From positions 15,111 through 79,110 of the forward strand of contig JASEFT010000001.1 in NCBI GenBank assembly GCA_030018475.1: a stretch of DNA of 64,000 nucleotides, given 5' to 3'. The notes beneath the pieces are model-generated. The model searched no databases, was not told the origin of the DNA, and worked only from the letters and a program-made list of their open reading frames with translations. Source of the DNA: Thermoplasmatota archaeon. GTDB taxonomy: Archaea; Thermoplasmatota; JASEFT01. Position 1 is the first letter of the stretch; the number at the start of each line of letters is the position of its first letter. Position numbers and translations under genes: made by a program. Shown here one piece after another: positions 8,333 to 60,105 of this stretch.

Positions 8333-8459
8333 AGTCTTGAGCTAGTCATCCTGTTCTTTGGGCTTGCTCTAGAGTAAGATAGCCGTTTCACCAAATCTCT
8401 TTAGAACTTCATGCTCTTGCAATCATCATATACTAAAGAGCTGTGCCGTTTCTGCGCTT

Positions 8460-27713: not shown

Positions 27714-27722
27714 TGGCTTTGC

Positions 27723-32800: not shown

Positions 32801-33063
32801 TTTGTATTATTCCAAGAAATGTTTAGAGTAGCGCCCCCAACACCGTTATAGCCTGGCACTTCAAATAACCTGCCTTCAACGCTTAAGCTTGTGTTGTTCT
32901 CTACCCAATCACGTGTGTATAAGTGTATTGTTGTGTTTGACGTTATATTGATATCGTCTCTTTCTACTTGAGCTATAATAACAGAAAACTGTGAGCTTTC
33001 TAAACTCATTATTGAGACTGACAGAAAAAGTACAATTCCAGAAAACATCAAAAATTTTTTCAT
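29797..33063 (-). CDS. giant glycoprotein-like surface protein (Ig/CARDB-like repeats) with C-terminal TM and cytoplasmic DUF4129-like tail, 1088 aa
   Basis: Signal peptide, ~950-aa sequon-dense ectodomain, then TM (WLYLLPLLALPIPFVGYCIL). Tail carries the ETFREFEYAV motif reminiscent of DUF4129. Confidence 0.65.
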   Translation of the reverse strand: MKKFLMFSGIVLFLSVSIMSLESSQFSVIIAQVERDDINITSNTTIHLYTRDWVENNTSLSVEGRLFEVPGYNGVGGATLNISWNNTKLSELVTVLSSDPALNGTFNFSFIPKERAGCYPLNVSFEGDTYRNSSWNETKIKVMHQVVINVVESTTSVVVGNNISISGELEDDDGTALVNETVELLLDNVSKNDTKTLSQGYFRINYTVPLITTAGNHIIRVFHPRSVYWLEKSAELNVTVQRKTQILLNSKVVGRNKTADVTGTLVDNMNVTLADENVTVRWWDNSEKNATTNEFGNFSVEFYVGAPPSNTINVTANFSGSNYYESSSNNTTYTVQRGANIILEGKRAVRRYTTEIKGRVFDDDGEDMHNANISLFWNEEQIGSNITNSTGWFSYTYLVPSDHFLGNVTVKAVFEENETFARSEAIVNYTITSETRIELRLEPSRAIRNSTVDIACSIFADNGMMISDEELTIRIFWNDSLINTTTTSVGKFSFAWLVESSQSLGNVKIRAELNQSSKYESNHTEVYYEIYSETYIQVAGKRSIRNATVEISGSIVDDQYVPLEVDLEIHWNTTTITAHSNSSGFFSCLYHIPYNHSVGKVNVTVKFSGADFYNSSEATAIYTIYSNTTLVLAKAEKIYKNSTVEINGTLLDDQCSIVANQLISIFWRDRQIGAAVTNFSGFSFYYNIPALDAVGEAKVSAKFSGTDIYEPSENITYYKIYSNTTILVFMPELLVRYENFTIEALLLETDSLLPIARKYMLLSIANHSLGNACTDINGIANFTGILTGSISLGCQIIKIEFNGSGYYESSKFEESIAVKERVKIAIDTLPAIEAGCELKCLLSLNPRLSNANIKLKLRLVDEELENITIVLKIGNRVDELLTNETGMAERILQADSKGNLSFSLIVPTFTGTLTLEGITEFAGTEYYDYYIPSSIVCNVSVYERKLYAIPTWLYLLPLLALPIPFVGYCILRKRQIAKMRKIIESAKGELVAGSAYIKTILELYRKLCVHLKKFGFLRKSFETFREFEYAVRKALPIAEECLDKFIGIIEEVRYSHHEISSKHRDAAIANFNAVELSIKELEERMKRK

Positions 33064-33066
33064 TTT

Positions 33067-36000
33067 TTACCATTCATCCCAAGCTTCTAAATACTCATAG
33101 GTGGCTTCTGATTTAGCAGCAATTGTAGCAGTACCAGCACTAATATTTTCAGGTACTTGGCATTCCACAATAAATTCGCCTGATTCGTTTGTCTTATTTA
33201 TACCTACAACGTAAGAGATTCCAGATTGATTAAGATAAATTGTTACTGTTATGTTTGGAATAGGCTGCGTAGGATTACTTGCATTAACAACTTTACCTCT
33301 CACCCAAAAACGTTCGCCTTTATAATAAAAATCTTTTAAAGGCCAAATCTCTAGAATAGTAATTTCTGCAACGTATCTCCCAACTGTTTGGTCGTCATTA
33401 GGATTTGTTGGGTTTGTGCCCCCCCCAACTTCAGTACCATCGCTTACACCGCCACCGTCACTGTCAGGGTTTGTTGGGTCTGTGCCAATGCTCAGCTCGC
33501 CAATGAATATTACCAGAGCATCGGTGCAATTATAGATTATACCACGATTCATAAGATGATTATACCGCTCCAAACCTTGATCGGTTGTTGTAGGCGTTAC
33601 GGTCTCAGTTATATTATAATCGCATAACATATACCAACACGTCCACGTTACAGTATTTACAGTTATATTAAATCCATCGAGCAGCCTATCCAAATCAGTA
33701 TCACAATGTGTTGGATTTGTGTCAGTTACTAAGAACTCAAATCTGTTAGTTAAGCCATCTAGATCTGGGTCTTCAGAATCGTCATTTCCATATGTAGGAT
33801 TAAAGCCATATTTAACCTCCCAGCCATCCCAACATCCGCAACAATCGCTATCTGGATTTAGCGGGTTTGTTATATATAGGTTGGGATAGCCGTCTCTTTC
33901 TACTATTCCAAGCTCATCGCCATCCCAGAGCCAATCTCCATCAGTATCTGGATTGTTAGGGTTTGTGCCGTAAATATTTACTTCTTCCCAGTTAGTCAGA
34001 CCATCGCCGTCACTATCTGCAGTCTCATTTTTTACGAGAGGGTTAGTCCCTAAAGTTAGCTCACCATAGAACGTTATGGTACCATCCAAGTTGTCGATAT
34101 GCGCAATACTATAATTTAAGAAATACCTGTAAAGCTCTGAGTTATTCATCACTATAAGATTATATCCATCCAGGAAAGTGTCGCTGTCAGTGTCTGGAGA
34201 CAATGGGTTGGTATTGTAATTTAGGTTGCCATCGCCATCCCAATCTATTTCAGATTCTTGGTAATAGGAGCTCATTTCAGCTCCGTCTAGCAAGCCGTCG
34301 CTGTCGCAATCCGGATTTAATGGGCTAGTGCCATTCCACCAAACGCCATACCAAGGAACAGCCCACCAGCTTGGAATTGAAACTAAATATTCCTCTAAAT
34401 TTGTGAGATTATCCTCGTCTTCGTCATTACCTGAATCTATTGAGCTGAGCGGATTAAGATTATAGCTTGCTTCCCAGCCATCAGGCATACCATCATTATC
34501 AGTATCCCAATTTATTGGGTTTGTGCCGTTCCACCAAACGCCATTCAAAGGAACGTCCCAGGCTGTTGGGAGATTAAATTGATATTCTTCTAAATTTGTT
34601 AAATTATCGTTATCTGCATCCAAAAGAGAATCATTAGCAAGCGGATTTAGCTGATAGAAAAACTCCCAGCCGTCAGGCATACCATCATTATCAGTATCCC
34701 AATTTATTGGATTTGTGCCGTTCCACCAAACGCCATTCATTGAAACACTCCAGTTATTAGGAATATTAAACAAATATTCTTGAAAATTAGTTAGTGCATC
34801 GCTATCGCTATCGCCGGCACTGTCATTTCTTCTAGGGTCGATATTCCAGTAATAGAAATCAATTTTGTAAACTGCATATTTTACTTCCCAGCCGTCAGGC
34901 ATACCATCACTATCAGTATCCCAGTTGTTAGGATGAGTGAGCCATGCTTTGACCTCATCGCCATCCAAAAGCGCATCGTTATCGCTATCGTAATTACATG
35001 GGTTTGTGGGTTTAATATCTGGGTAGCGCCAAACTAGCGCTCTAAAACAACTTCTTAAAAATACTTCTTCGTAGTCAGTCAATCCATCGTTATCAGTATC
35101 TTTAGCGCAAGGATTCGTAAAACTAATATTGTAAAGTTTGTAGAGTTCAGGAAACACTAATTTCAGAAATACTTCTTGGTAATCGTTTAGTCCATCTCCA
35201 TCAGTATCTGGATTAATTGGAGATGTATTGTAAAGTTTTACCTCATCGCCATCTATAAGGCCGTCGTAATCAGTATCGTTTAGTCTCGGATCTGTGAGTG
35301 CTAAGTATTCTTCTAAGTTAGTTAAATTATCCAAATCCTCGTCACTATAGGTATCGTTTGCAAGGGGATTTAGTCTGTAAAAAACTTCCCAGCCGTCAGG
35401 CATGCCATCGCTATCGCTGTCGGGATTGCGAGGATTTGTGCCTGCTAAATATTCTTCTAGATTTGTGAATTTTTCATCTTGGTCGATTGCTCCATTCCTA
35501 TCAAAATCGTAACCATCATTGTCAGGATCTTCGCTTGAATCGTCTCTAAGCGGGTCTAGTAAATAGTAAACTTCCCAGCCGTCAGGCATGCCATCGCTAT
35601 CAGTATCTGGGTTTGTGGGATTTGTTTTATAAATGTAAATCTCGTCGTAGTCGCCAAGACCATCGTTATCTGTATCGTTATTTTTAGGATTTGTGCCTGC
35701 TAAATATTCTTCTAAGTTTGATAACCCATCGTCATCCAAATCTAAAGAAGAGTCATTAGCCAGTGGGTTTAGTCCATAGAATACTTCCCAGCCATCAAGC
35801 ATGCCATCGCTATCAGTATCGTTATTACCAGGATTCGTGTCAGCTAGATATTCTTGAAGATTTGTAAGGCCATCGCTGTCAATATCGCAATTAGAGTCTG
35901 CACGATTTGGGTCTGCAGGCTGGTATTTGTCTTCAGCCATATCGAACCATAATCGATATTTTACTTCCCACCCATCTGGAATACCGTCTCCGTCAGTATC

Positions 36001-36210
36001 CGGATTAGTGTAGTTAGTTGCAGGAAAGCCGGGTGGATAGCCGAGCTCTTTTATATCAGGTAGTCCATCTTCATCTGTATCTATAAGTGGTATTTGCTCC
36101 TCTTTGCCTTCAAATACATGTTGCGCATACCTTAAAGGATAAAACTGAAAAAAATGGATCAAAAACAGTATGGCGATAAGCGCGAGAATTGCAAGTATTA
36201 GCTTCTTCAT
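33067..36210 (-). CDS. secreted protein with ~25 thrombospondin type-3-like Ca-binding repeats, 1047 aa
   Basis: Repeated NPxNxDTDxDGxxDGWE motifs throughout. N-terminal signal/TM and a C-terminal beta-sandwich-like domain. Confidence 0.75.
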   Translation of the reverse strand: MKKLILAILALIAILFLIHFFQFYPLRYAQHVFEGKEEQIPLIDTDEDGLPDIKELGYPPGFPATNYTNPDTDGDGIPDGWEVKYRLWFDMAEDKYQPADPNRADSNCDIDSDGLTNLQEYLADTNPGNNDTDSDGMLDGWEVFYGLNPLANDSSLDLDDDGLSNLEEYLAGTNPKNNDTDNDGLGDYDEIYIYKTNPTNPDTDSDGMPDGWEVYYLLDPLRDDSSEDPDNDGYDFDRNGAIDQDEKFTNLEEYLAGTNPRNPDSDSDGMPDGWEVFYRLNPLANDTYSDEDLDNLTNLEEYLALTDPRLNDTDYDGLIDGDEVKLYNTSPINPDTDGDGLNDYQEVFLKLVFPELYKLYNISFTNPCAKDTDNDGLTDYEEVFLRSCFRALVWRYPDIKPTNPCNYDSDNDALLDGDEVKAWLTHPNNWDTDSDGMPDGWEVKYAVYKIDFYYWNIDPRRNDSAGDSDSDALTNFQEYLFNIPNNWSVSMNGVWWNGTNPINWDTDNDGMPDGWEFFYQLNPLANDSLLDADNDNLTNLEEYQFNLPTAWDVPLNGVWWNGTNPINWDTDNDGMPDGWEASYNLNPLSSIDSGNDEDEDNLTNLEEYLVSIPSWWAVPWYGVWWNGTSPLNPDCDSDGLLDGAEMSSYYQESEIDWDGDGNLNYNTNPLSPDTDSDTFLDGYNLIVMNNSELYRYFLNYSIAHIDNLDGTITFYGELTLGTNPLVKNETADSDGDGLTNWEEVNIYGTNPNNPDTDGDWLWDGDELGIVERDGYPNLYITNPLNPDSDCCGCWDGWEVKYGFNPTYGNDDSEDPDLDGLTNRFEFLVTDTNPTHCDTDLDRLLDGFNITVNTVTWTCWYMLCDYNITETVTPTTTDQGLERYNHLMNRGIIYNCTDALVIFIGELSIGTDPTNPDSDGGGVSDGTEVGGGTNPTNPNDDQTVGRYVAEITILEIWPLKDFYYKGERFWVRGKVVNASNPTQPIPNITVTIYLNQSGISYVVGINKTNESGEFIVECQVPENISAGTATIAAKSEATYEYLEAWDEW

Positions 36211-36212
36211 AG

Positions 36213-39200
36213 CTATTTTATTAATTGCTTTTTCATTAATTGCTTTTTCAAACTATAAATGTATGTGGCTCGGCGCTTTTTACTCCTTCTCCTTAGCTCC
36301 CTCAATCCTAAAGTTATAGTTATCGCTACAGCAATTGCTACTACTATGTATAGATATATATTCCAAAACTCTATAAAGCTGACTTCGAATTTTTGAATGA
36401 AAACGTTATTGTCTTCGTTAAGCTCTGGGAACCTGTTTTCGGGATCGAGCTCTATTCTTAATATATAACTTCCTGGTTTAGCATACCATGTAAACCATAG
36501 GTAGACGACTTCATTCGCCATTAATACTGAAATTTCTTCACTCTTAAAAAGAGCATCATTTTCATATAACGATACCAGCACATTTTGCATTGTAATATTA
36601 CCTTCGTTAGTTATACCTACCCTTATTCTCACCTCTTCACCAGCCTTAGGATTTAAATTAGAAATTTTTATATCTGCAAATTTAAAATCAGGTAGTAGCA
36701 GTATTAGTTTAAGAGTAATTTTTTTGACTAAACTATTATTGCCGCAAGATTGTATTAAAAGCTCAAACTCATAGCTAAAATTATCTATCTTAAAAGGTAT
36801 ATGTACTCGTACAGAAATATTTTTACGCTCGCTTAAATTTAACACTGAGCTTGTATTCTCTAACCATCCAAAATTGCTTATTAACAAAATAATATCTTTT
36901 CCATTACCTAAATTTTCCACTTCAATATTGTACTTTACTGTTGTGTTTGGTGCTCCCGCTACTACCGGCTTTTCACATGCAATATTAAAATCATAATATT
37001 GAGCCACTTCAATTGTAATATTCAATATAAAACTAACATTTTTGGCGCTAACGTTAAGTTCTAAATAATATTCCTCCTCAGCAGACGCTGCTCTTGGAGC
37101 GAAAATCAATATTTCCAAATATTTTAGCTCGTTAGGAAGTATTGAGAAATTCAAGTATGAAAGACTAACTTCCCAGTTAGGTGGCTTTGCTAATAGCTTG
37201 AATTTAAGTAAATTTTCTACGTTACCATTATTTTTGAAGCCCAAATTTAAACTTTCGTTTTTGCCAGGCTCTATAACAAAAGTCTTGTTATAAATTGCAG
37301 TAATATTATAAATTGGAGCTACTATTGCAGTCAAAATAATATTGCCAGTGTAGTTTTCTAGCTTTGAAGTTAAATTGACTTTCAAACACTCGCCACTAAT
37401 TGCATTTTCAGGTACTTTTAGGTATAGATAAATTAGAGACTTAGCTCCTGTGGCTAAATAAATTCTATCTTCAGATAGGGAAGCGTTCCATAAGGTAGTA
37501 TTAAGTTCAAAGTTGATTTCGCCGCTTCCAACTAGGTTCCAAACGTTAATTGTATAGTTTAGAGTGGCACCAGGGACTGCGTATTTAGTAGCTTCATCAC
37601 AAGACAAATCTATTGTAAAATTCTTGATCCCAGTGTAGGTTGTAACGTAATCTCTTTTGGTACTGTCGTATTTAGAAAGCGCTCTTACTTTTACCTCTGC
37701 AATTCCTTTATCAGCTTCAGGTGCTTTAACGCAAAGGTAAAAATATTTAGTTTCGCTATGCTCTAATACCAGTTCGTAATCGCTAAGTGATGAATCCCAG
37801 CCGAATGGCACACTTACCTGAATTAAATCCAGAAGGTAGACATTATCTCTGCGATTTCCTCTATTCTGAACCGATATAGTGTAATAAGCTATTCCACCCG
37901 CTTCTACAATACTGCTACTATACTCACATTCTAAAGCCAGATTGTAGATCGGAATAATACTTGTAACTGTCTCTATAGAATCCTCGATATTGCCATAATT
38001 AGAGTGGGCTATTACTAAAATATAAGCTTTAGAGTTAATATCTGGGGTACTAGCAGTAACTGTTAAATTCACAGTTGCATCCTTTCTCGGCTCTAAAATT
38101 AGAGCTGTTAAGTTTAGGGAAGCACTCCAGTTGAGGGTATCAACCTGCTGATTAGAGAACTCCCATCTCAGCTCTATATTATCAACTCTGCTACCTAGAT
38201 TTTTTAAAATAATAGTGTAATTAACAGAGGAGTTAAAATTTAACTCTTTAGAATTAATTTCGCATTCGAGCTTTAGTTGATAACGCTCTTTCTCAGGTCT
38301 AGTATAATAAATATCGAAATCTCCGTCAAGATTATCATGCCAGAATATGTTAGTAGTGTTATCAAGACAGAGCGTGGGGCAATCTGACACGCAAATATTA
38401 GTATATGTTACTCTTTCGCAGTCCCATGTAATGCCATTATAACTCACTCCAAGATAGATTTCAAAATTACCTGGTGTACTATCAGACCATACTACATAAA
38501 TACCTGTATCGTTTACTGCAATTGCCGGGTTTTTAGAATCGCCGCTAGTAGTTGTAAGCTTTTTTTGCTCTAACGCAGTTAAATTAGCCCAGTAAATCTC
38601 CCAATTACCATCTCTGTTATCTTGCCATACTATCCAAGCATCGGTTTCATTTGCTGCAATTGCTGGCTTTTCTGAACAGCTTAAAGTGTTAGTTACTCTT
38701 CTTTCAGTCCAGCTCAAGCCTTTATCGGTACTAAAACTACAATATATATCCCAAGTATACAAATCTTCAGATTCTTGCCAGGCGACATAAACACTATCGT
38801 TCCAGCATGCTATTGCAGGGTTCTTAATATAATAACCATAGGCAATAGTATAGGCAGGAGACCAATTATCGCCGTTATCGCTGCTGTTAGCAAGGCGAAT
38901 ATAGCACTGATCGTGCCATACTATGTACAGCTCGGTTTCGTTAAGCGCAATTCTTACTTCAGAGCAATATGCTGAAATTATCGTCTTAGGATAGAAATCC
39001 CAGCTAGAGCCATTCGTACTACTTCTCAGATAATATATAAAATTGCCTTTGACCCAAACAATATGCACATAATTTTGCCATACAGCAATTGCTGGCGAAC
39101 GACCCAAGGAAGAGGCAGGTATATTTACCTCTTCCCATACGCATCCCGAAGAGCTACTTCTATTATACCTAATGCCCTGAGCATCTTCCCAAACTACATG

Positions 39201-39380
39201 AACATAATTTTTCCAGCTTGCTGCTGCAGGATGCATTGAGCTGACTGTATTATTAGACAAATTCACAGGATCTTCCCAGGTTGTTAGTCTGTTAGAACTA
39301 CTCAGAGCTACGAGAGTAATATTACTGACAACTATAGAACTTAAAACAGCCAGTACAATTACAAATTTATGCACAGTCAA
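36213..39380 (-). CDS. BNR/Asp-box beta-propeller surface protein with CARDB-like domains and C-terminal TM anchor, 1055 aa
   Basis: Asp-box motifs (SSTNGSSWD, SSDNGDNWS, STDKGLSWT). C-terminal TM plus basic tail (IVVAIAVAITITLGL-RELRRRSKKRR). Confidence 0.75.
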   Translation of the reverse strand: MTVHKFVIVLAVLSSIVVSNITLVALSSSNRLTTWEDPVNLSNNTVSSMHPAAASWKNYVHVVWEDAQGIRYNRSSSSGCVWEEVNIPASSLGRSPAIAVWQNYVHIVWVKGNFIYYLRSSTNGSSWDFYPKTIISAYCSEVRIALNETELYIVWHDQCYIRLANSSDNGDNWSPAYTIAYGYYIKNPAIACWNDSVYVAWQESEDLYTWDIYCSFSTDKGLSWTERRVTNTLSCSEKPAIAANETDAWIVWQDNRDGNWEIYWANLTALEQKKLTTTSGDSKNPAIAVNDTGIYVVWSDSTPGNFEIYLGVSYNGITWDCERVTYTNICVSDCPTLCLDNTTNIFWHDNLDGDFDIYYTRPEKERYQLKLECEINSKELNFNSSVNYTIILKNLGSRVDNIELRWEFSNQQVDTLNWSASLNLTALILEPRKDATVNLTVTASTPDINSKAYILVIAHSNYGNIEDSIETVTSIIPIYNLALECEYSSSIVEAGGIAYYTISVQNRGNRRDNVYLLDLIQVSVPFGWDSSLSDYELVLEHSETKYFYLCVKAPEADKGIAEVKVRALSKYDSTKRDYVTTYTGIKNFTIDLSCDEATKYAVPGATLNYTINVWNLVGSGEINFELNTTLWNASLSEDRIYLATGAKSLIYLYLKVPENAISGECLKVNLTSKLENYTGNIILTAIVAPIYNITAIYNKTFVIEPGKNESLNLGFKNNGNVENLLKFKLLAKPPNWEVSLSYLNFSILPNELKYLEILIFAPRAASAEEEYYLELNVSAKNVSFILNITIEVAQYYDFNIACEKPVVAGAPNTTVKYNIEVENLGNGKDIILLISNFGWLENTSSVLNLSERKNISVRVHIPFKIDNFSYEFELLIQSCGNNSLVKKITLKLILLLPDFKFADIKISNLNPKAGEEVRIRVGITNEGNITMQNVLVSLYENDALFKSEEISVLMANEVVYLWFTWYAKPGSYILRIELDPENRFPELNEDNNVFIQKFEVSFIEFWNIYLYIVVAIAVAITITLGLRELRRRSKKRRATYIYSLKKQLMKKQLIK

Positions 39381-39485: not shown

Positions 39486-39695
39486 GTGAAGGAATGCTCT
39501 ATTAGAGGTTCAGTACGTGGAGAGTATAGAATCGTACAAAGAGGAATCTCTACAAAAGAGTTGCGAGAGACTATACTAAAAGGTGCTAAGACAGTGAAAT
39601 GGAATAGAATAATATCAAGATACAAAAAACTTGAGGTTGTATGGAAGAAATTGCCCTGCTTGTATTTTGTGATAACGACCTATTGGAGGGAATAA
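39486..39695 (+). CDS. small basic hypothetical protein (possible toxin-like partner)
   Basis: 69-aa ORF overlapping the start of the downstream Zn-ribbon/AbrB gene. No recognised motif. Confidence 0.25.
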   Translation: MKECSIRGSVRGEYRIVQRGISTKELRETILKGAKTVKWNRIISRYKKLEVVWKKLPCLYFVITTYWRE

Positions 39696-40027
39696 GATGG
39701 AATGTCCTATCCGCCAAAAAGGAAAACTTGTATCAAAAAAAAATTGACTACTTGTATGAGGATTTGTATCTTGGTAAGTTCGAGGCGGATGTATGCAACC
39801 AATGCGGCGAGGCTTTCTTTACAGAGAATGCTATGAATAAAATAGAAAAGAAGGCAAAAGAGATAGGAATACGGGGTCTGGAGCGAAAAACAAAGATCTC
39901 AAGGTCCGGGAACTCGCTCATTATCCGAATACCGAAAGCAATTGCTGAGTTCGTTGGTGCAAAGGATGGTACAAGTGTCACCATTCGACCCGGTGGTAAA
40001 AGTAAACTTATCGTGGCAATGGAGTAA
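39641..40027 (+). CDS. YgiT/MqsA-type zinc-ribbon plus AbrB/SpoVT swapped-hairpin DNA-binding protein (antitoxin-like)
   Basis: VCNQCGEAFF...IEKKAKE zinc-ribbon half-motif. C-terminal SGNSLIIRIPKAIAEFVG AbrB-type motif. An A9 homopolymer at 39735-39743 separates an alternative MECP... start. Confidence 0.55.
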   Translation: MEEIALLVFCDNDLLEGIRWNVLSAKKENLYQKKIDYLYEDLYLGKFEADVCNQCGEAFFTENAMNKIEKKAKEIGIRGLERKTKISRSGNSLIIRIPKAIAEFVGAKDGTSVTIRPGGKSKLIVAME

Positions 40028-40039
40028 AACACGTATCCC

Positions 40040-40431
40040 CTATACTCGTTCCACAATTCCCTTCTCCGCATCCACAACCAGCTTATCGCCCGTTTTAATC
40101 TGCTCTATTTTAATTTTATCAACACATGGTATGCCTGGTAGGATCACACCGGTAGCAACGATAGTTTCGGTTTCTTCATTTATAATCGCTCTCGGCGCTA
40201 CACCATTCTTTTTCAAGCCGTAGATCGCATAAGAGCCTGCTGTAGAGCCCTTACCGCATGGGAACACCAGTATCTTATCCTTAACACATTTGCCCTCGAG
40301 CTCGTGCCACTTTTCTATTCACGGTACCTGTCTTTGCATCTATCCCGCCGTAAAAACCAAGAGGCTCTTTTGAAACGAGCGCTTCACCTTCTGCTTTTCC
40401 TGGACAGATTGTTCTCCCTCTCATAATAACC
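40040..40431 (-). pseudogene. phosphomevalonate dehydratase small subunit (aconitase X swivel, DUF126), frameshifted
   Basis: N-terminal part MRGRTICPGKAEGEALVSKEPLGFYGGIDAKTGTV stops after ...GQMC. The C-terminal part continues in another frame (KILVFPCGKGSTAGSYAIYGL...). A single extra A in gtgaAtagaa (plus ~40318-40325) accounts for it. Confidence 0.6.
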
Positions 40432-40850
40432 TCGCTATCAGCTCATCAATATTTTTGAAAACAACCTTCTGCTTGCAAAAACTAGGCAGATAATTTGCAG
40501 CCTTGCCTGAATTGACACCTGTGGTTTTGTAGCCTATTCTTTCAATAGGTGAAACAACCATGCAAGTATCTGCAACTATTTTACTCCCGGCATTTTCTAC
40601 AATCTTCGTATAACCCATTCTGTTAGCGCATTCCTTCATAACCCTTGAGGTGCAAATCCATAATGGTTTCTTCGGTTTTTTTCCCTTTTAGCTTCTCAGC
40701 TAAAACAGATATTTCTCTTAATGAAGCGTGCGGACAACCAAGAACCACAATATTCGGATCTTTACCTGTGTTCAGTTTCTCATAAGTCTCCTTTACAAAA
40801 TGCTCGTTAAACAAAATCACCTTCCCAAAGCCCCAGCCTTCTCCCATCAA
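40421..40850 (-). pseudogene. phosphomevalonate dehydratase large subunit (aconitase X, DUF521) C-terminal fragments, N-terminally truncated and frameshifted
   Basis: Two adjacent ORF pieces (..GCPHASLREISVLA..; ..ECANRMGYTKIVEN..). They cover only ~140 of ~390 aa. The 5' end abuts the transposase remnant. Confidence 0.55.
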
Positions 40851-40866
40851 ACCTCACCGTGTGATA

Positions 40867-41037
40867 ATGAATTTGAAACGGAAAAAGTTTTTTATCTCTG
40901 CACAGATTGGAGAAATAGAAAGATTTGCTAACTCAAAGAAATTATGTTCTGATGCAGGACTTGTTCCTTCATTAAAACGATCTGGAGGCTACTTAAAAAT
41001 GGGACATATACCAAAACCGAGAAGAAAATGGAGGTGA
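40867..41037 (+). mobile_element. IS110-family transposase C-terminal remnant (Transposase_20-like)
   Basis: FISAQIGEIERFANSKKLCSDAGLVPSLKRSGG matches the IS110-family (l)aeiGdisrF...laayaGLvP...SGg signature. It is truncated by a stop, and no N-terminal DEDD domain is present. Confidence 0.5.
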
Positions 41038-41177
41038 AAATTAAGTACTCATAATCATATTGATGTAACAAAAAGGGAGCCATCAGGGGTGACGGGGGTT
41101 AAATACGTGGAGTGAATGTAGGTGTTTGGAGTAAATAGTGATAAACTAAGAGCCAACCAACAGCCCAATTTTACCTA

Positions 41178-41675
41178 CTACTTTCTTTCTATTTTTTCCT
41201 GTTTCTTTATAGACTGAACAAAAATATGATATCTTGCTATTATGTGATGAAGTGTGATCTCGCCTATGATAACGTCATTCTCCGTTACTGGCAGGCGCCT
41301 CACGCCGTATCTTGACATCAAATCCAGTGCAGCTTTAATTGTAGTTTTTGGGGCGCATTTGATAAGCTTCTTTGACATTATGCTACCTGCAGTTGCTTCG
41401 TGCAGGGTTCTAACATCAGGTATGCCGAAAACATAAGATGGCAGCTTCTTAGGCGCGAGAATTGACAGAATATCGTGTTCCGTTATCACGCCAACCAATT
41501 TTTTAGTTTCCTTACTTTCGACAACCCAAACGTGGCTCTTCCCGCTCAAAACAGCTAACACGTGCTCCACATCTGTATCCTTTTCAATTAAAGGCAGGTC
41601 CCACAAACGCTTGTCCATAATTTCTTCTACCGTAAATTTGTAGAACTCGGGCACAACCACTTTTTCTTCATGCAT
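41178..41675 (-). CDS. tandem CBS-domain protein
   Basis: Two CBS repeats. 165 aa. Downstream of and co-oriented with the antiporter gene. Confidence 0.75.
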   Translation of the reverse strand: MHEEKVVVPEFYKFTVEEIMDKRLWDLPLIEKDTDVEHVLAVLSGKSHVWVVESKETKKLVGVITEHDILSILAPKKLPSYVFGIPDVRTLHEATAGSIMSKKLIKCAPKTTIKAALDLMSRYGVRRLPVTENDVIIGEITLHHIIARYHIFVQSIKKQEKIERK

Positions 41676-41704
41676 ATACTTCCCCTCTACCGACTTTTTA
41701 TGTA

Positions 41705-42928
41705 TTAAACCTTCTCCTTCTCTTTCTTTTCTTTTCTAATCATTTTCAGGGCTTTAACTAATAAAGGAGGTGTGATAAGAGTGGTAACGATAATCATGAT
41801 AAGTATAGCGGATGCTATATTCGAGCCTATAATCTTATAGTCCAATGCAAATTTGAGCAATATTAGTTCTACGCCCGCTCTTGGTATCATGGCAATACCA
41901 ACAGCAAAGGACTCGCGCCCGCTAAATTTAGATATCTTAGCGCCACCACCACAACCTACAATCTTACCGATTATTGCGACAATTAGAAGAACGACTGCGA
42001 ATAGCCCGATGGTTAAGAATGCGCGAACATCGAACTTCGTACCCATGAAAACAAAAAAGATAGGTATGAAAAAAGCACCACCGATCAACGATACGTGTTC
42101 TCTAACCTCAGCAGCCAAGCGGGACTGTCCAACAACCAAGCCTGCCACAAAAGCGCCAACAATAGATGCCAGCCCAATTTCTTCTGTTATCAGCCCGAAG
42201 AGTAAAACCACGATTAAGCCCAACAACAGAACGCTTTCCTTTCCTAGATGTATTTTTTCTGAGAATTTTCTAAACCCTTTTATTCCCAAAGTAAGAGCTA
42301 TCAGGAAAAATAGTACAACAAAAACAACAAGTAGAGATATTCTTGCTAGAGGTATAGTACCAGTTACCACGATACCCACAAGAGCGCTTATCATTACTAC
42401 GCCTATCACATCATCTACCACTGCTGCGCCCATAATCAACGTGCCAAGCCTAGTTCTTAACATTTTCAATTCTGTAAGAATTGAGGCGTTGACTCCAACC
42501 GATGTCGCCACTAGACTAACGCCTAGATATAGCGCGATGATAGTAGAAAAACCAAAAAAGATTGCCACCAAATAACCGAGTAGAAATGGAAAGATCACGC
42601 CTAAGGAAGCGACAACGCTTGAAGCAATTTCAAGCCTTTTAAATTCTTCAAAATTTATTGCCAAGCCCGTAGAAAATAGTAATAGGATTATGCCGATATC
42701 TGCAAGATGAGACATTATCTTTAGGTCATCTTCGGTGAAAATAAGGCTCTGCAGGCTTTGGATATCTACAAGCTGAGGTATAGGACCTACCAAAACGAGA
42801 TAGCCTAGGTTCCCAAGAATCATGCCCAAAATTATTTCACCAAGAATTACCGGCTGTTTTATTGCTCTTGACAATATTCTCCCCAATCCCACGGCAATGA
42901 GGATAATCAAGAGACTCAGGATAAACAT
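41705..42928 (-). CDS. CPA2-family monovalent cation:proton antiporter (Kef/NapA-like)
   Basis: 407 aa with ~12 TM and glycine-rich TM pattern (ILGEIILGMILG). Paired with the CBS protein. Confidence 0.7.
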   Translation of the reverse strand: MFILSLLIILIAVGLGRILSRAIKQPVILGEIILGMILGNLGYLVLVGPIPQLVDIQSLQSLIFTEDDLKIMSHLADIGIILLLFSTGLAINFEEFKRLEIASSVVASLGVIFPFLLGYLVAIFFGFSTIIALYLGVSLVATSVGVNASILTELKMLRTRLGTLIMGAAVVDDVIGVVMISALVGIVVTGTIPLARISLLVVFVVLFFLIALTLGIKGFRKFSEKIHLGKESVLLLGLIVVLLFGLITEEIGLASIVGAFVAGLVVGQSRLAAEVREHVSLIGGAFFIPIFFVFMGTKFDVRAFLTIGLFAVVLLIVAIIGKIVGCGGGAKISKFSGRESFAVGIAMIPRAGVELILLKFALDYKIIGSNIASAILIMIIVTTLITPPLLVKALKMIRKEKKEKEKV

Positions 42929-43307
42929 GCGGCGCCTTCTATTCTGAAATATTAATTGGTGGATTAACTTTTGTTTTATTAAATTTTGTTATGGAAATGG
43001 ACTCTCCGAAAAGAATCTTGCTGGGGGTTACCAATTGTCGTTTCTAGAATTTAAAACCCTATTATTGTTTGCCTAGGTTGACCTCCGCAATCTGTTCCCC
43101 CCTTCAACTCCAACTTCTGGACTATCACTCCACTGCGCCCATTTGTTTGAAGCATGCGTGGGCAGAATTTTGATATACTAAGAAATCAATCCAGTTAAGA
43201 ACAGAATTAAATTCAATTCGATGAGATTGTCGGCTTATAAGTGTTTAGAAGTGATAAAACAGTACCTCGATTTTAAATACTATATCCAAAGACATTTTGA
43301 AGATAAA

Positions 43308-44033
43308 TTAGAAAGGTTTTAATCCATGGAACTTGCAGGTTTGTACAGAAACTATATTTCGTAGCTCTAACAGTGAATTTATTTTTATTATTGGGCTTTT
43401 TAATGAGCTAGAGCTCAAGTTGCTGGAAAATAATATTGGGATCATACCGACAGCTCTTGCGCCTAAAATATCGCGCTCAATCGAATCGCCAATATAAAGC
43501 GCATTTCGAGGCTCACATTTTGCTTTCTTAAGTGCAATTTTAAAAATTTTCTTGGAAGGTTTTCTAACCCCAACTTCTTCAGAAGTAGTTATAGAATCAA
43601 AAAATTTCAGTATTTTTAGCGCTTTTAATTGCTCGTGAAGATAGGCATTATCTACATCTGATATAAGCCCCAAATGAAGTTTTTTAGCTTTTATATTTCT
43701 TAATATAACTCTTGCACGTTTGTTAAGCCGTACGTTTTTCAAATGAGCTTTGAGATACTCTTCCCAAAACCAATCGTAGTCAGGAATTTTATTTTCTTCT
43801 TTTAATATTTGTGAGAATGCGTTATTTATGTTCTTCAAGCCATGCGATTGCTCATACTTTAAAGGGTTTGGGTAAGTATGGGTGCAGTATTCGTATTTTT
43901 CTACTAGCTCTTTTATTGGCGCTCTAAGATTGTATCTCCGTTTTACGGCTTTCATTAGTTTCCAATGAGCTTTCCTATCACTCTCGGTGCTCATAAGAGT
44001 ACCGCCAAAATCAAAAAACACAGCTTTTACCAT
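43308..44033 (-). CDS. HAD-superfamily hydrolase
   Basis: Motif I FFDFGGTL (atypical: the second Asp is Gly), motif II LGLISDVD, motif IV YIGDSIERD. 241 aa. Confidence 0.6.
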   Translation of the reverse strand: MVKAVFFDFGGTLMSTESDRKAHWKLMKAVKRRYNLRAPIKELVEKYEYCTHTYPNPLKYEQSHGLKNINNAFSQILKEENKIPDYDWFWEEYLKAHLKNVRLNKRARVILRNIKAKKLHLGLISDVDNAYLHEQLKALKILKFFDSITTSEEVGVRKPSKKIFKIALKKAKCEPRNALYIGDSIERDILGARAVGMIPILFSSNLSSSSLKSPIIKINSLLELRNIVSVQTCKFHGLKPF

Positions 44034-44038
44034 TTATC

Positions 44039-44464
44039 TCACTCTCTAAACCACAATGTATTTTTTATTTCATCGCAATCTAAGGAGAGCCATTTTTTGT
44101 CAATGAAAAGGGCTCTTTCGGCAAGGATTCTCAGAAAAATCACTGAGCTACAATCATAGCAATAAATTTCGTAAATCAGCCCTTTAAGGATATCTGCCTG
44201 CTTAACTCCTAAATCTACATTTTCGCCTTCCTCTAATACAAATCTTTGTACTTCACATTTTGAATTCTTAATTGTTTCTTCTGCGATAAGCGCTATTTCT
44301 TGAAAAATTACATCCAAAAACTCTTCACTAGGCTCTAGATTCACAGAACCTATTCTGTAATTATTATCTTTTTTCATTAGAACATTAAACCTTTGCTTGA
44401 GCCTCTTATCGTCTTTGAATTTAATTTCTATTGCCGGGAATAATCTTTCTACGAATTGGCACAT
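44039..44464 (-). CDS. hypothetical protein
   Basis: 141-aa ORF. No motif recognised. Confidence 0.35.
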   Translation of the reverse strand: MCQFVERLFPAIEIKFKDDKRLKQRFNVLMKKDNNYRIGSVNLEPSEEFLDVIFQEIALIAEETIKNSKCEVQRFVLEEGENVDLGVKQADILKGLIYEIYCYDCSSVIFLRILAERALFIDKKWLSLDCDEIKNTLWFRE

Positions 44465-44562
44465 TCTAAAAACTATAATATACTGGAACGTTTATTTAGC
44501 TATCGCGATTTAGCTATCAAGGAAAAACTTCGTTTTTCCTCTTATCATTCGCCTCTGCTTAC

Positions 44563-44856
44563 GCGGGCTCATGAGGTAAAGGATAGCCTACCAGGCTTCG
44601 GACCAGCCCTTTCTTTTCTCTTAAAAAGAGAAAAGAAAGCGACTGGCGGGAAGAAAAGAGAAACAAGGGATTACTTCGTAATCCCTTAATAATACGAAGA
44701 TTGCTACGCAATTACTAGTACTAATTGCGTAGTAACTAACGAAAGTTCTTTTCTTTTTCCTGGAGAGACCTGGAAGTCGGGGTTCGATTGGCGTTGAGGC
44801 GCTTCACGCCTCAACTCATTTTCAAGGCTATGTCTCGAAAATCCCCGTGAGCCCGT
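44563..44856 (+). ncRNA. candidate structured ncRNA, copy A of a two-member family (unknown function); lies upstream of orc1/cdc6
   Basis: Terminal 11-bp helix (GCGGGCUCAUG/CGUGAGCCCGU). Perfect hairpins with loop AAAAA, UUCG (GGGAUUACUUCGUAAUCCC), CTAGTAC, and GUUGAGGCG-CUUCA-CGCCUCAAC. A closing helix around the central hairpins. Homologous to 8460-8745(-). An upstream ctataatata box and an extra UUCG hairpin lie at 44521-44539. Confidence 0.55.
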
Positions 44857-44895
44857 CTAAAAAGCGATCTCGTTCAACGCAGTTCACACATTACA

Positions 44896-44903
44896 TTTAT
44901 AAT
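44896..44903 (+). promoter_or_regulatory. TATA-box-like element for orc1/cdc6 (leaderless transcript likely)
   Basis: tttataat lies ~25 nt upstream of the ATG at 44926. Confidence 0.35.
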
Positions 44904-44925
44904 CCCACAACTACTTTTCCTCTGT

Positions 44926-46068
44926 ATGCCCTTCTCCTTCAAAGACGAATCAAAACTTTTCGTTGACTATTACGTGCCTGACGAGTTGCCTCATCGTGAA
45001 GAAGAGCTTGAGAGCCTTAAGAAAACGTTCGCGCCGATGCTCGAAAAAAATATTCCATGCAAGGCAGAAATTACAGGCGCTCCCGGAACAGGCAAAACAG
45101 CGGTTGCAAAACTATTTAGCAAAATTGTAGCTGAGAAAGCGCATGTAAAACCAGTTTACTTAAATTGCAGAGTTGTGCCGAGCGGTGTAAGTGCAATTAC
45201 AGAGACTATAGCTGAATTTGATAAAGAAGCGCGAGCGAGAGGCAAAGGTTTCTCTATGCACGAAAATTTTAAGGCTTTAGTTAAAATTTTAAAAGAGCGC
45301 GAAGCGCATTTGCTGCTTGTTCTTGACGAAGCAAACATTTTAGCAACCAAAGAGAAAGATTTTCTGTATCTTATTGGCAGGGCAAAGGAGATTGCAAAAT
45401 GCAATATTTCTGTAATTCTCATAGCTGTTTACGATATTCTTCATTACTTAGATATTGCAACTCAGGATACGTTTAGAGTAATGAATAGAATAAATTTGAA
45501 CATTTACACAGAGAAGCAGCTTATAGATATTATCAAGCAAAGAGTCGAGCTAGCATTTTATCCAAAAAGCATTACAAGTGCTTCTATAGACCTAATTGCA
45601 AAACTAGCAGCTAAGCAGGGGAGCGCTAGAATTGCAGTAGAATTGCTTAGAGGCGCAGGCTGGTATGCAATAAATAATTATCTTGACAAGATAACTCCGG
45701 AGTGCGTTAGAGCTACGCAGGCAGAAATATATCCTTTTTATAGTTATGATAAGCTCAGAGAACTAAGTGACCAAGAAAAAGCATACTTGCTGGCTGTAGC
45801 AAGAAAGCTAAAAGTCAAAGAAGAGCCTTACGCTACAAGCGGTGAAGTTGATAATCTATATCTTGTTGTGTGCGAAGAATATAATCTAGAAAAGTTAAGC
45901 TCTAGAACGTTACTGAGAATGCGCGAGAAACTAAAAGAGCACGGCTTTATAGACACTAAGAAATCTGCTACAAAAGAAGGTTTGACAAGTCATATTTACT
46001 TAACTGATATTCCTGGAAGCGTTCTGGAAGAGAAACTGGAAGAAGAATTAAAGAGATTAGCTAGATAG
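44926..46068 (+). CDS. orc1: Orc1/Cdc6 replication initiator
   Basis: Walker A GAPGTGKTAV, Walker B LVLDEAN. C-terminal winged-helix region. 380 aa. Confidence 0.88.
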   Translation: MPFSFKDESKLFVDYYVPDELPHREEELESLKKTFAPMLEKNIPCKAEITGAPGTGKTAVAKLFSKIVAEKAHVKPVYLNCRVVPSGVSAITETIAEFDKEARARGKGFSMHENFKALVKILKEREAHLLLVLDEANILATKEKDFLYLIGRAKEIAKCNISVILIAVYDILHYLDIATQDTFRVMNRINLNIYTEKQLIDIIKQRVELAFYPKSITSASIDLIAKLAAKQGSARIAVELLRGAGWYAINNYLDKITPECVRATQAEIYPFYSYDKLRELSDQEKAYLLAVARKLKVKEEPYATSGEVDNLYLVVCEEYNLEKLSSRTLLRMREKLKEHGFIDTKKSATKEGLTSHIYLTDIPGSVLEEKLEEELKRLAR

Positions 46069-46255
46069 CACTAGACATCTTGTGGCGAGTGGCTTTCACG
46101 TCGCTGAGGAGCTCTAAGAGCACTCGCCATTTTTCTAGCCGGGTTCACCTAAGCTTTAAATACTCCAAAATCCTAACCAGAGTTCGTAATTGCGCTTCCC
46201 AGATATATAGCGCCCTAAGGCGGGCTCTGGGAAAGCGTTTATTGCCCAGCCCCTA

Positions 46256-46930
46256 TTATTTTTTTGTTTCTAATTCTTCAATTATACAAGCGCCTGAACT
46301 CCCAGACCACTCTTTTCTAGCTTTGCTAACTTCTAATTTGTATTTGAACAATGGCATATTTAGAACGAAAGTTTCGTATTCGCCGCCTTCGCCAGCTAGT
46401 TGAATTTTATATTTTTTGTTAACAGCTTTTAAATCTTCAACAAGTTTCTTATCGATTTTCCTGCCGAGCAAGCTTTCATCTAATCCATAGGCGGAGACTG
46501 CTGTAACGATTATTTCGAAGCCAGCGCTCAGCATATCCTCTAACAGCATTTCTTGGTCTTTGTGCCATAATGGCGCAAAAGAACGTAAGCTAAGCTCTTC
46601 GCAAATAAAATCTATTCTCTGCTTCTGGTATTCTGAGGCTATAGCTCCTGTAACTATTCCGTCAAGCTCATCCTTTACCGATTTGATTAGCTCAGCTAAA
46701 TCTTTTAATTCTTCTTCTTTCTCACCTTTAGTGGATTTTTGAATTAATGGAATTCCAATAGAGCAAGCTTGAAATTCCGTCAGCTTAGCATTATAGTAAT
46801 GGAACATATAGCTGTAGGGATTCTCTGGCAGTAGTGTGATAAGGTACTTTAACTCAAAGCCTTGAGAATGCATAATATAGGCAGCGTATAAGGAATCTTT
46901 GCCTCCCGAAGTCAGTACCCCAAGCTTCAT
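46256..46930 (-). CDS. PP-loop ATP pyrophosphatase, diphthine-ammonia ligase (Dph6/MJ0570-like)
   Basis: N-terminal SGGKDS PP-loop. 224 aa, the typical archaeal Dph6 size. Confidence 0.7.
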   Translation of the reverse strand: MKLGVLTSGGKDSLYAAYIMHSQGFELKYLITLLPENPYSYMFHYYNAKLTEFQACSIGIPLIQKSTKGEKEEELKDLAELIKSVKDELDGIVTGAIASEYQKQRIDFICEELSLRSFAPLWHKDQEMLLEDMLSAGFEIIVTAVSAYGLDESLLGRKIDKKLVEDLKAVNKKYKIQLAGEGGEYETFVLNMPLFKYKLEVSKARKEWSGSSGACIIEELETKK

Positions 46931-48222
46931 TTTTCTAATTTACTAACTAACTCGAGAGCTGATTCAGAAGCTTTTGCTAAGATTTCCAGCTCGTTTAGAG
47001 TTTTAACTTCATAATCTTCCATTAATATTTTGCCATTAACTATAGTTGTAGCTACATCAGAGCTTTTTGCAGAATATACTAGATTAGAGACAATATCATG
47101 GCACGGCGTTAAATGGGGGCTCGTCAGCTCCAATAATATCAAGTCTGCTTTTTTACCTACTTCGACTGAGCCTAATAAATGCTCTACTCCAAGCGCTTTA
47201 GCACCGTTTATAGTTGCCATATCCAGCGCTATTTGCGCTGGTATTACTCTAGGGTCCCATCTATGCATTTTCTGTAACAGAGCAGCTACTTTCATTTCTT
47301 CAAATAAATCCAAGCTATTATTTGAGACTGGGCTATCAGTTCCCAAAGCAACAGCTACGCTGTTATCAAACATCTCAGCAAGTGGCGCTACGCCACCAAC
47401 GCCTAATTTCATATTAGAGACAGGGCAGTGCACTGCCTTAGCGCCCGTCTTGCTTAATATCGAAATCTCTTCTTTAGTTATCCAACCTAAATGGACTGCA
47501 ACTACATTTTTATCTAAAAAACCAATTTCGTTGAGATATTCAACAGGTCTTCTGCCATGCTCTTCTAACGATTCGTAAACTTCTTTTCTTGTCTCAGCTA
47601 CATGGATATGTAGCAAAGTTTCGTATTTTCTCGCCAGCTCTTTCGCTTTTAGTAAAGTTTCTGTAGAGCAGGTGTATTGAGAATGCGTTCCTACTGTTGG
47701 GGTAAATAGCTCAGAGCTACTTTTCGCTAAATTTTCAAATGCTCTGAAAGCTCCTGATGAATTCCTAAACTCAGCAGTTGGAAAATCGACAATAGCTTGA
47801 GCGAAGAAAGTTCTCACCCCACTTTCTTCAGCTGCACGCTTAACAGCGGTGCCGAAAAAATACATATCGTGGAAAGTTGTAATTCCAGCTTTGACGAGCT
47901 CTAGCATTCCTAGCACAGCACCGCGATAAACATGTTTTTCAGTTAGATTTGATTCTAAAGGCCATATCTTATCTTCAAGCCATTCTTGTAGTAAAAGATC
48001 ATCAGCATAACCTCTGAAAAGAGTCATTGGTAAATGGGTGTGAGAATTAATCAAGCCTGGCAGCACTATTTTATCACTGCAATCAATTATATAGTCCTTG
48101 GTGGTTAAGTTACAGCCAATCCCAGCGATTCTATCGTCTTCTATAGAAATGTCGACGTTGCGCAGAATTTCACGATTTGCATTTTGAGTCACTACCCAAG
48201 AGCAGTTTCTTAAGAGTATCAT
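46927..48222 (-). CDS. amidohydrolase, 5-methylthioadenosine/S-adenosylhomocysteine (or 5'-deoxyadenosine) deaminase-like (MtaD/DadD)
   Basis: Metal-binding HxH (INSHTHLPM) and HVAE. 431 aa. 4-nt overlap with the Dph6-like gene. Confidence 0.65.
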   Translation of the reverse strand: MILLRNCSWVVTQNANREILRNVDISIEDDRIAGIGCNLTTKDYIIDCSDKIVLPGLINSHTHLPMTLFRGYADDLLLQEWLEDKIWPLESNLTEKHVYRGAVLGMLELVKAGITTFHDMYFFGTAVKRAAEESGVRTFFAQAIVDFPTAEFRNSSGAFRAFENLAKSSSELFTPTVGTHSQYTCSTETLLKAKELARKYETLLHIHVAETRKEVYESLEEHGRRPVEYLNEIGFLDKNVVAVHLGWITKEEISILSKTGAKAVHCPVSNMKLGVGGVAPLAEMFDNSVAVALGTDSPVSNNSLDLFEEMKVAALLQKMHRWDPRVIPAQIALDMATINGAKALGVEHLLGSVEVGKKADLILLELTSPHLTPCHDIVSNLVYSAKSSDVATTIVNGKILMEDYEVKTLNELEILAKASESALELVSKLEK

Positions 48223-48266
48223 AATATTGTATAACTCAGACTCGTTATTTAAATTTACTTACTCTT

Positions 48267-48734
48267 TTAGGAAGTTAGCCACACAGTTCCTGTCAAGCAA
48301 AGCAGTGTTACGAGCAAGCCTGCAATAATTACACCTATTGAGATAGTTAATATAGCCTTTGTAAGTTTAAGTCCGAAAAGATAAGCTATTAAGGAGCCGG
48401 TCCAAGCGCCTGTAAATGGTGATGGGATAGCTACGAAAGCTATAAGCCCTAGAGTTTTATATTTCTGGATTTTTGGGTTTGCTCTCCTCCTTGTACGGTC
48501 GAAAAGCCTTGTAAGAACTCTATCCCAGCGCTTGTATCTGCGCAGTAATATTTCTATATAACTAAAAAATAATATGATGAAAGGTACTGGTAAAATATTG
48601 CCGAGCACGGAAATTGAAAAAACTTGCCACAGCGGTAGGTTATAGAGAAGTCCCATTAGAATTGCTACTCTGAGCTCTGCGAAAGGCATCATTGAGATGA
48701 TAAATATTATTAGATGCGGTGTCAGTTCTAGCAT
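48267..48734 (-). CDS. small multi-TM membrane protein (COG2426-like), hypothetical
   Basis: 155 aa with 4 predicted TM. Confidence 0.4.
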   Translation of the reverse strand: MLELTPHLIIFIISMMPFAELRVAILMGLLYNLPLWQVFSISVLGNILPVPFIILFFSYIEILLRRYKRWDRVLTRLFDRTRRRANPKIQKYKTLGLIAFVAIPSPFTGAWTGSLIAYLFGLKLTKAILTISIGVIIAGLLVTLLCLTGTVWLTS

Positions 48735-48743
48735 TTTAATTTT

Positions 48744-49991: not shown

Positions 49992-49993
49992 AA

Positions 49994-50596: not shown

Positions 50597-50653
50597 GCTT
50601 TGTTAATGCGCTCCGAAGGTTTTTAATTTTACTACTGCTATTCTATTTTCTGA

Positions 50654-59992: not shown

Positions 59993-60105
59993 TAGAAGAA
60001 ACTCTTCAGAGAAAGAAAAAGTAGGTCAAAGTTTTGTCTTTTTGAAAAGCAGTGAAAATATTATTAATATAGCAAATCATTTCTCTAAAAAGGTGAACTG
60101 GCAAA

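Follow-up and report, generated by a model that had tools for sequence, protein, structure and literature searches.

The 64-kb window analysed here (64,000 nucleotides of contig JASEFT010000001.1 from the Thermoplasmatota assembly GCA_030018475.1) contains, at positions 40040-40847, what is very probably the relic of an archaeal mevalonate operon, a second copy that was dispensable and is now dead. The operon comprises the genes for mevalonate kinase (MVK; mvk), a UbiD-type decarboxylase (ubiD), an LpdD-like protein, and both subunits, large and small, of phosphomevalonate dehydratase (PMDh; acnX-large and acnX-small). The decayed PMDh locus next to an IS110-family insertion sequence (IS) remnant, which was described in the initial annotation, is confirmed, including two real frameshifts. 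The loss goes beyond AcnX, to which it had been attributed; most of the five-gene operon is gone, affecting mvk, the ubiD-type decarboxylase, the LpdD-like gene and acnX-large. Judging from its sequence, the relic should encode no function. As an intact copy of the enzyme persists elsewhere in the same species, the locus is indicative of ordinary gene loss, with no sign of host dependence.

Between 40040 and 40850 the minus strand holds four short open reading frames (ORFs), of which the two distal ones belong to the small and the two proximal ones to the large subunit. The small-subunit ORF 40281-40424 matches positions 4-47 of the 132 positions of NCBIfam NF003046 (DUF126; E 8e-9), and ORF 40040-40267 matches positions 56-128 (E 3e-29; Pfam PF01989, E 1e-16). 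Jointly they cover positions 4-128 and hence the full length of the family. The reading frame is interrupted by one surplus A in GTGAATAGAA (+1; plus-strand T at 40318/40319), and dropping this base gives back GGIDAKTGTVIEKWHELEGK, in agreement with the homologues. The single-base insertion that had been proposed to split the small subunit is thus borne out, with the two NF003046 pieces in separate ORFs. The AcnX-small protein of a related locus (L007) aligns in tblastn with aa 1-38 at 40424..40311 and aa 36-124 at 40318..40052, and the frame-repaired protein is 85% identical to its best homologues. The stop codon lies at 40040-40042 and the ATG at 40424-40422, where it overlaps the large-subunit stop (ATGA); of the span first assigned, 40040-40431, the start holds and the end moves to 40424.

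Of the large subunit only the C-terminal part is left. In agreement with the two fragments in different frames described initially, the remnant matches Pfam PF04412 only at positions 270-320 (E 4e-9) and 333-399 (E 4e-19) of 400, and the L007 protein aligns in tblastn over aa 277-315 (40796..40680) and over aa 321-396 (40663..40436). The frame is broken by a +1 change within seven consecutive A residues (A7; T7 at 40676-40682 on the plus strand). Large subunits of intact relatives span PF04412 positions 1-400, and the relic falls short of such a full-length, three-domain protein of ~400 aa. The catalytic centre of A. pernix PMDh includes Cys122, the conserved Glu145, Cys297 and Cys356, with the three cysteines binding the cluster, and Cys122 and Glu145 have been probed by mutagenesis (PMC10040528). 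The remnant retains two cysteine motifs, GCPH and DTCMVV, which we assign as the likely equivalents of Cys297 and Cys356. The N-terminal two thirds are gone, including, according to the alignment, the positions equivalent to Cys122 and Glu145, and the set of catalytic residues is therefore incomplete.

The large subunit had initially been extended to 40850. Its part from 40421 to 40793 stands, while 40794-40847 represents the start of a mevalonate kinase gene. Residues 4-22 of the L007 kinase match 40850..40794 in tblastn with 79% identity (E 4e-5), and in blastn 50 nt of the junction region align at 88% identity with the beginning of mvk in locus L002 (E 2e-11). Weaker matches to window positions 40794-40849 were observed in ~30 loci, in the same orientation and several kb upstream of the acnX match; in the closest loci this distance is ~3.3 kb. 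The remnant begins with the ATG at 40847 and carries the clade-typical motif GKxILFNEHFV, the GHMP N- and C-terminal domains not being present; upstream of it, GGTGAGGT may act as a Shine-Dalgarno sequence. Codon 18 of mvk is joined in frame to ~codon 277 of acnX-large between 40794 and 40793, with the sequence ...CATTTTGTA/AAGGAGACT... at the junction. At the corresponding places, relatives have CATTTTGTA/GTGTAT in mvk and GAATTA/AAGGAG in acnX, suggesting a microhomology of at most 2 bp (TA), and no significant repeats or long microhomology were found at the junction. In the coordinates of L007 the lost segment measures ~3.3 kb and includes the rest of mvk, the entire decarboxylase gene, the small gene behind it, and two thirds of acnX-large. 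A tblastn search of the 64-kb window with the five L007 operon proteins found nothing beyond the MVK, AcnX-large and AcnX-small pieces of the relic. The truncation point abuts mvk codons and not IS sequence, and the truncation is an internal, in-frame deletion of the operon. This takes the place of the IS-mediated disruption of AcnX that had been proposed; the IS fragment lies outside the operon.

For comparison, 80 related loci were found by scanning genome contigs with the repaired large-subunit fragment. The AcnX relatives come mostly from Thermoplasmatota metagenome-assembled genomes (MAGs); the set did not include the source genome and showed no synteny with the flanks of the window beyond the operon itself. 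The order mvk, ubiD, small PAC/LpdD-like gene (usually present), acnX-large, acnX-small was observed in 48 of the 80 loci, among them nearly all those with enough upstream DNA. Annotation of L007 by Pfam and NCBIfam gives a 319-aa mevalonate kinase (TIGR00549, 250 bits versus a cut-off of 163) at the first position, followed by a UbiD-family decarboxylase of 436 aa, a PAC_bac-like gene of ~104 aa, and AcnX-large and AcnX-small of 400 and 127 aa. The decarboxylase is a candidate anhydromevalonate phosphate decarboxylase (AMPD). Among archaea the archaeal-type mevalonate pathway predominates, usually with clustered genes (PMC11052028). In locus L009, acnX is preceded by ~9 kb of DNA with neither mvk nor ubiD, and several shorter loci look alike; a dispersed arrangement, as found for the intact copy described below, is hence not unusual.

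The ~104-aa gene located between the UbiD-type decarboxylase and acnX-large (L007:8886-9200) has an equivalent in 53 of the 80 loci; it is not found in the window, where it falls in the deleted segment. It matches Pfam PF21758 (PAC_bac, E 4e-26), and a profile of 20 sequences matches the protein LpdD in the PDB (8p4w, 8pzh, 8po5; E 9e-7) with the motif GGGxxxHIG aligned. LpdD is a prFMNH2-binding chaperone that aids the activation of UbiD enzymes; the paper describing it reports that it is rarely adjacent to UbiD and mentions neither archaea nor mevalonate (PMC10865409). The archaeal decarboxylase may have a dedicated, LpdD-like cofactor chaperone, which, if true, could matter for rebuilding the archaeal pathway in other hosts.

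The lesions are found in a second assembly. Contig JASEIT010000016.1 (L088) of MAG GCA_030017735.1 carries the 56-aa transposase ORF that adjoins the relic and is 99.23% identical to window 39737-51035, with 83 substitutions and 2 indels over 11.3 kb. Across 39737-41447 the two sequences differ by substitutions at 40435 and 40557 alone, with no indel, and the same two frameshifts, the same mvk/acnX junction and the same IS scrap recur; the annotation of the contig has no gene spanning the relic. The presence of identical lesions in the assembly of a different strain indicates that they are not assembly errors, a possibility that had been raised against the reading as decay. The decay is older than the separation of the two strains. 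We also compared the relic with 72-74 intact homologues at near-invariant columns, i.e. those with at least 95% conservation. The repaired large-subunit remnant deviates at 5 of 53 such columns, versus a maximum of 3 among 74 intact homologues, and the repaired small subunit at 3 of 60; intact homologues show ~0.5 deviations on average, with maxima of 3 and 4 for the two subunits. In a distance tree, the relic has a terminal branch of 0.095 versus a median of 0.040. The locus is a genuine pseudogene and has been drifting for a while.

The two strains differ unevenly along the aligned region. In the tract 39737-41447 there are 2 differences in 1,711 bp, compared with ~1 per 115 bp over the next 9.6 kb; ~14 would have been expected (Poisson P ~6e-5, with the boundaries chosen after the fact). 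The tract spans part of the antitoxin gene, the relic, the IS scrap and the 3' end of the CBS-domain gene, and the contig of the second MAG ends exactly at window position 39737. Recent recombination or transfer between strains, or assembly collapse, could account for the low divergence.

A protein search with the repaired small subunit led to an intact AcnX-small of 130 aa (P0197) with 85% identity. It is encoded on contig JASEIT010000060.1 (L092, 8.9 kb) of the same MAG, GCA_030017735.1, beside a full-length AcnX-large of 395 aa with all three AcnX Pfam domains. A second copy elsewhere, which had been considered as an alternative in the initial annotation, therefore exists. The end of the acnX pair is overlapped by a geranylgeranyl reductase (GGR) family gene (TIGR02032, 206 bits versus a cut-off of 159), to which the pair is translationally coupled; a GGR gene was not found beside acnX in the other 80 loci. 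Upstream lies TauE, downstream follow GGR, Trm5/TYW2, a THUMP methyltransferase, RpoL and TruD, and neither mvk nor ubiD is adjacent. The tetranucleotide correlation between L092 and the window (overlap region excluded) is 0.935, similar to the 0.939 of the same-species contig L088, with at most 0.867 for 73 other archaeal loci. The locus is also present in GCA_030019275.1 (98.4% identity) and in two Logan assemblies (99.2%). Codon differences between strains number 10 synonymous and 7 non-synonymous in the intact large subunit, compared with 1 and 0 in its small partner.

Accession numbers connect the intact locus with the assembly of the window. The transposase ORF of the relic corresponds to MDI6707861 and MDI6855204 at NCBI. 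The intact small subunit MDI6708471 is in the same accession block as MDI6707861 (GCA_030017735.1), and a further intact small subunit, MDI6856431, is 1,227 numbers away from MDI6855204. From this numbering, the assembly holding MDI6855204 is probably that of the window, which hence would also have the intact acnX locus. The relic and the intact copy share ~73% identity at the DNA and ~80% at the protein level and are hence not the product of a recent duplication. Relic, intact copy and L014 are mutually 80-83% identical, and the distance tree did not separate duplication from horizontal transfer.

Two acnX loci on different contigs (L052, L069) were also observed in Euryarchaeota archaeon UBA33, where a binning mix is possible. 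Two PMDh copies per genome may thus not be unique to the species of the window.

Nothing in the window points to genome reduction or host dependence. An archaeal RNase P RNA at 8247-8538 identifies the DNA as archaeal, intact ORFs (up to 1953 aa) or RNA genes make up 92.7% of the sequence, and no gap exceeds that of the relic (1,150 bp). A polyprenyl diphosphate synthase, an enzyme that consumes isopentenyl diphosphate, is intact at 56652-57464 (PF01255, E 1e-83; TIGR00055, 287 bits). A second copy of AcnX, MVK or UbiD was not found within the 64 kb by tblastn with the L007 proteins. The GHMP kinase encoded at 8795-9673 does not qualify as a second mvk, since its best matches are pantoate kinase models (below the curated cut-offs) and it adjoins CoaBC. 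The region 60000-64000 had the appearance of a 4-kb stretch free of ORFs and is not one; an ORF of more than 1298 aa starts on the plus strand at 60106 and runs off the window end.

IS110 insertion sequences encode a DEDD transposase with a Transposase_20 domain and act as RNA-guided 'bridge' recombinases, the guide (bridge) RNA being encoded in a non-coding region. The initial assignment of an IS110 remnant to the strand opposite the relic is confirmed by Pfam and NCBIfam. The fragment sits in the annotated 56-aa ORF 40867-41037, enclosed by ORF 40861-41037 (plus strand), which matches PF02371 (Transposase_20, IS110/IS116/IS902) at positions 18-58 of 87 with 27.6 bits, above the cut-off of 21.3, and NF033542 (transpos_IS110) at positions 236-279 of 343. 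Searched against 1.84 billion representative proteins, the 56-aa ORF found 74 IS110-like representatives at E<=1e-3, including its own record, which is present verbatim at NCBI as 'MAG: transposase [Candidatus Thermoplasmatota archaeon]'. Apart from this record, the best match has 64% identity over 42 aa, and full-length matches of 330-430 aa align around residues 220-275 with 35-64% identity. Four full-length IS110 relatives match only window 40888-41025 in tblastn. No other IS110 piece was detected in any frame or elsewhere in the 64-kb window, nor any IS110 repeat (tblastn, blastn), and a close full-length relative of the fragment was found neither among 5.8 billion nor among 1.8 billion proteins. 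The fragment contains neither the DEDD RuvC-like N-terminal domain nor a complete Transposase_20 domain, and its flanks show no IS-related sequence and no recognisable element ends. As an element it is incapable of moving.

The fragment had been placed directly 5' of the truncated large subunit. It lies instead outside the operon, on the strand opposite to mvk and ~40 bp upstream of that gene's ATG; on the other side, 140 bp separate its ORF from the stop of the intact CBS-domain gene. This CBS-domain gene forms a pair with a Na+/H+ exchanger gene that is conserved in six metagenomic relatives (L081-L086, 61-71% identity), identified in a scan with the exchanger. No mvk operon follows the pair in these six relatives within the sequence available; in four of the six, an Orc1/Cdc6 paralogue is found at this position. 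As the pair in the relatives is not followed by an mvk operon, the IS scrap would thus mark a rearrangement boundary at the 5' edge of the operon, facing the unrelated CBS/exchanger pair.

The operon was destroyed by the ~3.3-kb deletion together with the two frameshifts and a number of point substitutions, in whichever order they occurred, and the relic probably decayed because it was redundant. The IS element, judging from its position, may have taken part in the rearrangement or in promoter inactivation at the 5' edge, and would then have been eroded by deletions on both sides. Several points weigh against this reading. If the relic held the genome's only copies of mvk and of the UbiD-type decarboxylase, the term redundant would fail for both. 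The link between the two acnX loci comes from MAG binning, from composition and from the proximity of accession numbers, and not from a closed genome. With the low identity between relic and intact copy, the second copy would have to be an old duplication or a horizontal acquisition, and the part ascribed to the IS element follows from its position alone.

In the model drawn from the initial annotation, an IS110 insertion cut the sole PMDh large-subunit gene, the rest decayed, and the organism, having lost or bypassed the synthesis of isoprenoid precursors, depends on a host. The IS110 fragment does adjoin the decayed genes, and the 64-kb window holds no other AcnX, MVK or UbiD. However, the truncation point abuts mvk codons rather than the IS element, the intact acnX/GGR locus is present in the same MAG and, according to the accession numbers, probably also in the source assembly, and the window combines an intact prenyltransferase consuming isopentenyl diphosphate with its high coding density. 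Moreover, the nearest relatives are MAGs of Thermoplasmatota, which are not a group known to be host dependent. We regard this explanation as highly improbable. Sequencing or assembly errors in an intact operon (a true A6 instead of A7, and GTGATAGAA instead of GTGAATAGAA) are even harder to accept. While the A7 homopolymer is a classic site of such errors, the frameshift in the small subunit is not in a long homopolymer, the assembly that is 83 substitutions apart has the same frameshifts, junction and IS scrap, substitutions have accumulated at conserved sites, and long intact ORFs occur elsewhere in the window. Least credible of all is an expression of the broken genes by programmed or transcriptional frameshifting, yielding a fusion of MVK residues 1-18 with the C-terminal part of AcnX and a small subunit. 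The deletion junction is in frame and slippage is conceivable in the A7 run, but the small subunit is shifted at a place that is not slippery, residues at near-invariant positions are disappearing, and the fused product would be devoid of Cys122 and Glu145 (PMC10040528).

A different fate of the pathway deserves somewhat more weight and nevertheless appears unlikely. The relic might have been the only mvk and ubiD-type decarboxylase of the genome, with another route from mevalonate to isopentenyl phosphate, Thermoplasma-type or unknown, taking over and the acnX pair left orphaned or repurposed. The intact acnX locus indeed has no mvk or ubiD adjacent to it, and the lost activities, MVK, PMDh and AMPD, are exactly those that the Thermoplasma-type pathway does not need (PMC11052028). 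On the other hand, the intact pair is full length, and the excess of synonymous differences between strains in both subunits suggests that purifying selection still acts on it, and such selection would make no sense in the absence of MVK and AMPD. In L009 and several shorter loci acnX likewise stands apart from mvk and ubiD, and dispersed genes are thus normal. Jointly, we give very little credence to the proposal that the relic held the only mvk and anhydromevalonate phosphate decarboxylase genes of a species whose lineage was switching its route from mevalonate to isopentenyl phosphate, and to its milder version, in which mevalonate operons move horizontally between Thermoplasmatota on islands bearing toxin-antitoxin or IS elements. 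If the switch had taken place, the relic would be the fossil of a replaced archaeal-type pathway.

The decay of a spare copy, which we favour, has consequences for how such loci are read. A broken PMDh in a single window could suggest the loss of lipid precursors, which is a strong claim on lifestyle, and claims of pathway loss from MAG fragments need a genome-wide check. An annotation as 'AcnX pseudogene next to a transposase' can conceal a larger deletion, here of mvk, the UbiD-type decarboxylase and a putative chaperone. The relic also documents two PMDh loci in some Thermoplasmatota, a modestly interesting point for how mevalonate operons evolved and perhaps spread horizontally.

The features of the locus and its flanks are listed in the table. 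In the putative toxin-antitoxin pair on the left, one gene has a weak DUF4258 match (22.5 bits, short of the cut-off of 25), and the next encodes a protein in which an MqsA/YgiT-type zinc finger is combined with an AbrB/MazE domain.

Table. Features of the mevalonate operon relic and its flanks, in window coordinates.
Feature	Position	Strand	Evidence
Putative toxin-antitoxin pair, left flank, convergent with the relic	39486..40027	plus	Pfam/NCBIfam, some below cut-offs
acnX small subunit (PMDh small subunit, DUF126) pseudogene	40040..40424	minus	NF003046, PF01989, tblastn
acnX large subunit 3' remnant, ~codons 278-400 of ~400	40421..40793	minus	PF04412, tblastn
Mevalonate kinase 5' remnant, codons 1-18 (MGEGWGFGKVILFNEHFV)	40794..40847	minus	tblastn, blastn
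Shine-Dalgarno-like GGTGAGGT, 3 nt upstream of the mvk ATG	40851..40858	minus	read from sequence
IS110-family transposase internal fragment, ~residues 219-272 of ~340 aa, part of Transposase_20	40888..41025	plus	PF02371, NF033542, tblastn
Spacer between the IS-fragment ORF and the stop of the CBS-domain gene	41038..41177		no ORF or homology found
CBS-domain protein, intact	41178-41675	minus	PF00571
Na+/H+ exchanger, intact	41705-42928	minus	PF00999

Two further regions of the window were noted. The minus strand of 26463-39380 carries genes for a MoxR-type AAA ATPase, DUF58 and DUF4350 proteins, and then three secreted or surface proteins of ~1,050 aa with Big_3_5/CarboxypepD_reg, TSP3 repeats and CARDB; this large cluster of surface proteins ends beside the relic and the toxin-antitoxin-like pair. 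The intergenic region of 461 bp (44465-44925) that lies upstream of the Orc1/Cdc6 gene (44926-46068) may be a replication origin; it contains two near-perfect palindromes as well as a pair of 18-nt inverted repeats (44559-44576 / 44843-44860).

Compared with known systems, the relic is closest to the archaeal (modified) mevalonate cluster, with mevalonate kinase, a UbiD-family trans-anhydromevalonate phosphate decarboxylase and the two subunits of a type IIb AcnX phosphomevalonate dehydratase, as seen in the 48 loci from Thermoplasmatota, Hadesarchaea, Methanomassiliicoccales and others. Gene order, orientation and the sequences of the surviving ends agree, and the ATGA overlap between large-subunit and small-subunit genes is common to the relic and its relatives. 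In contrast to these clusters, the relic keeps only codons 1-18 of mvk, ~277-400 of acnX-large and a frameshifted acnX-small; it is without the decarboxylase and the LpdD-like gene and predicted to be non-functional. The intact locus L092 has the same two families and the same genome composition as the relic, while it differs in being full length (395 and 130 aa), free of frameshifts and placed in another neighbourhood. The adjacent scrap is 45-64% identical to residues ~219-272 of many IS110 transposases; unlike members of this family, it amounts to ~140 bp without the DEDD domain, a complete C-terminal domain or recognisable non-coding ends.

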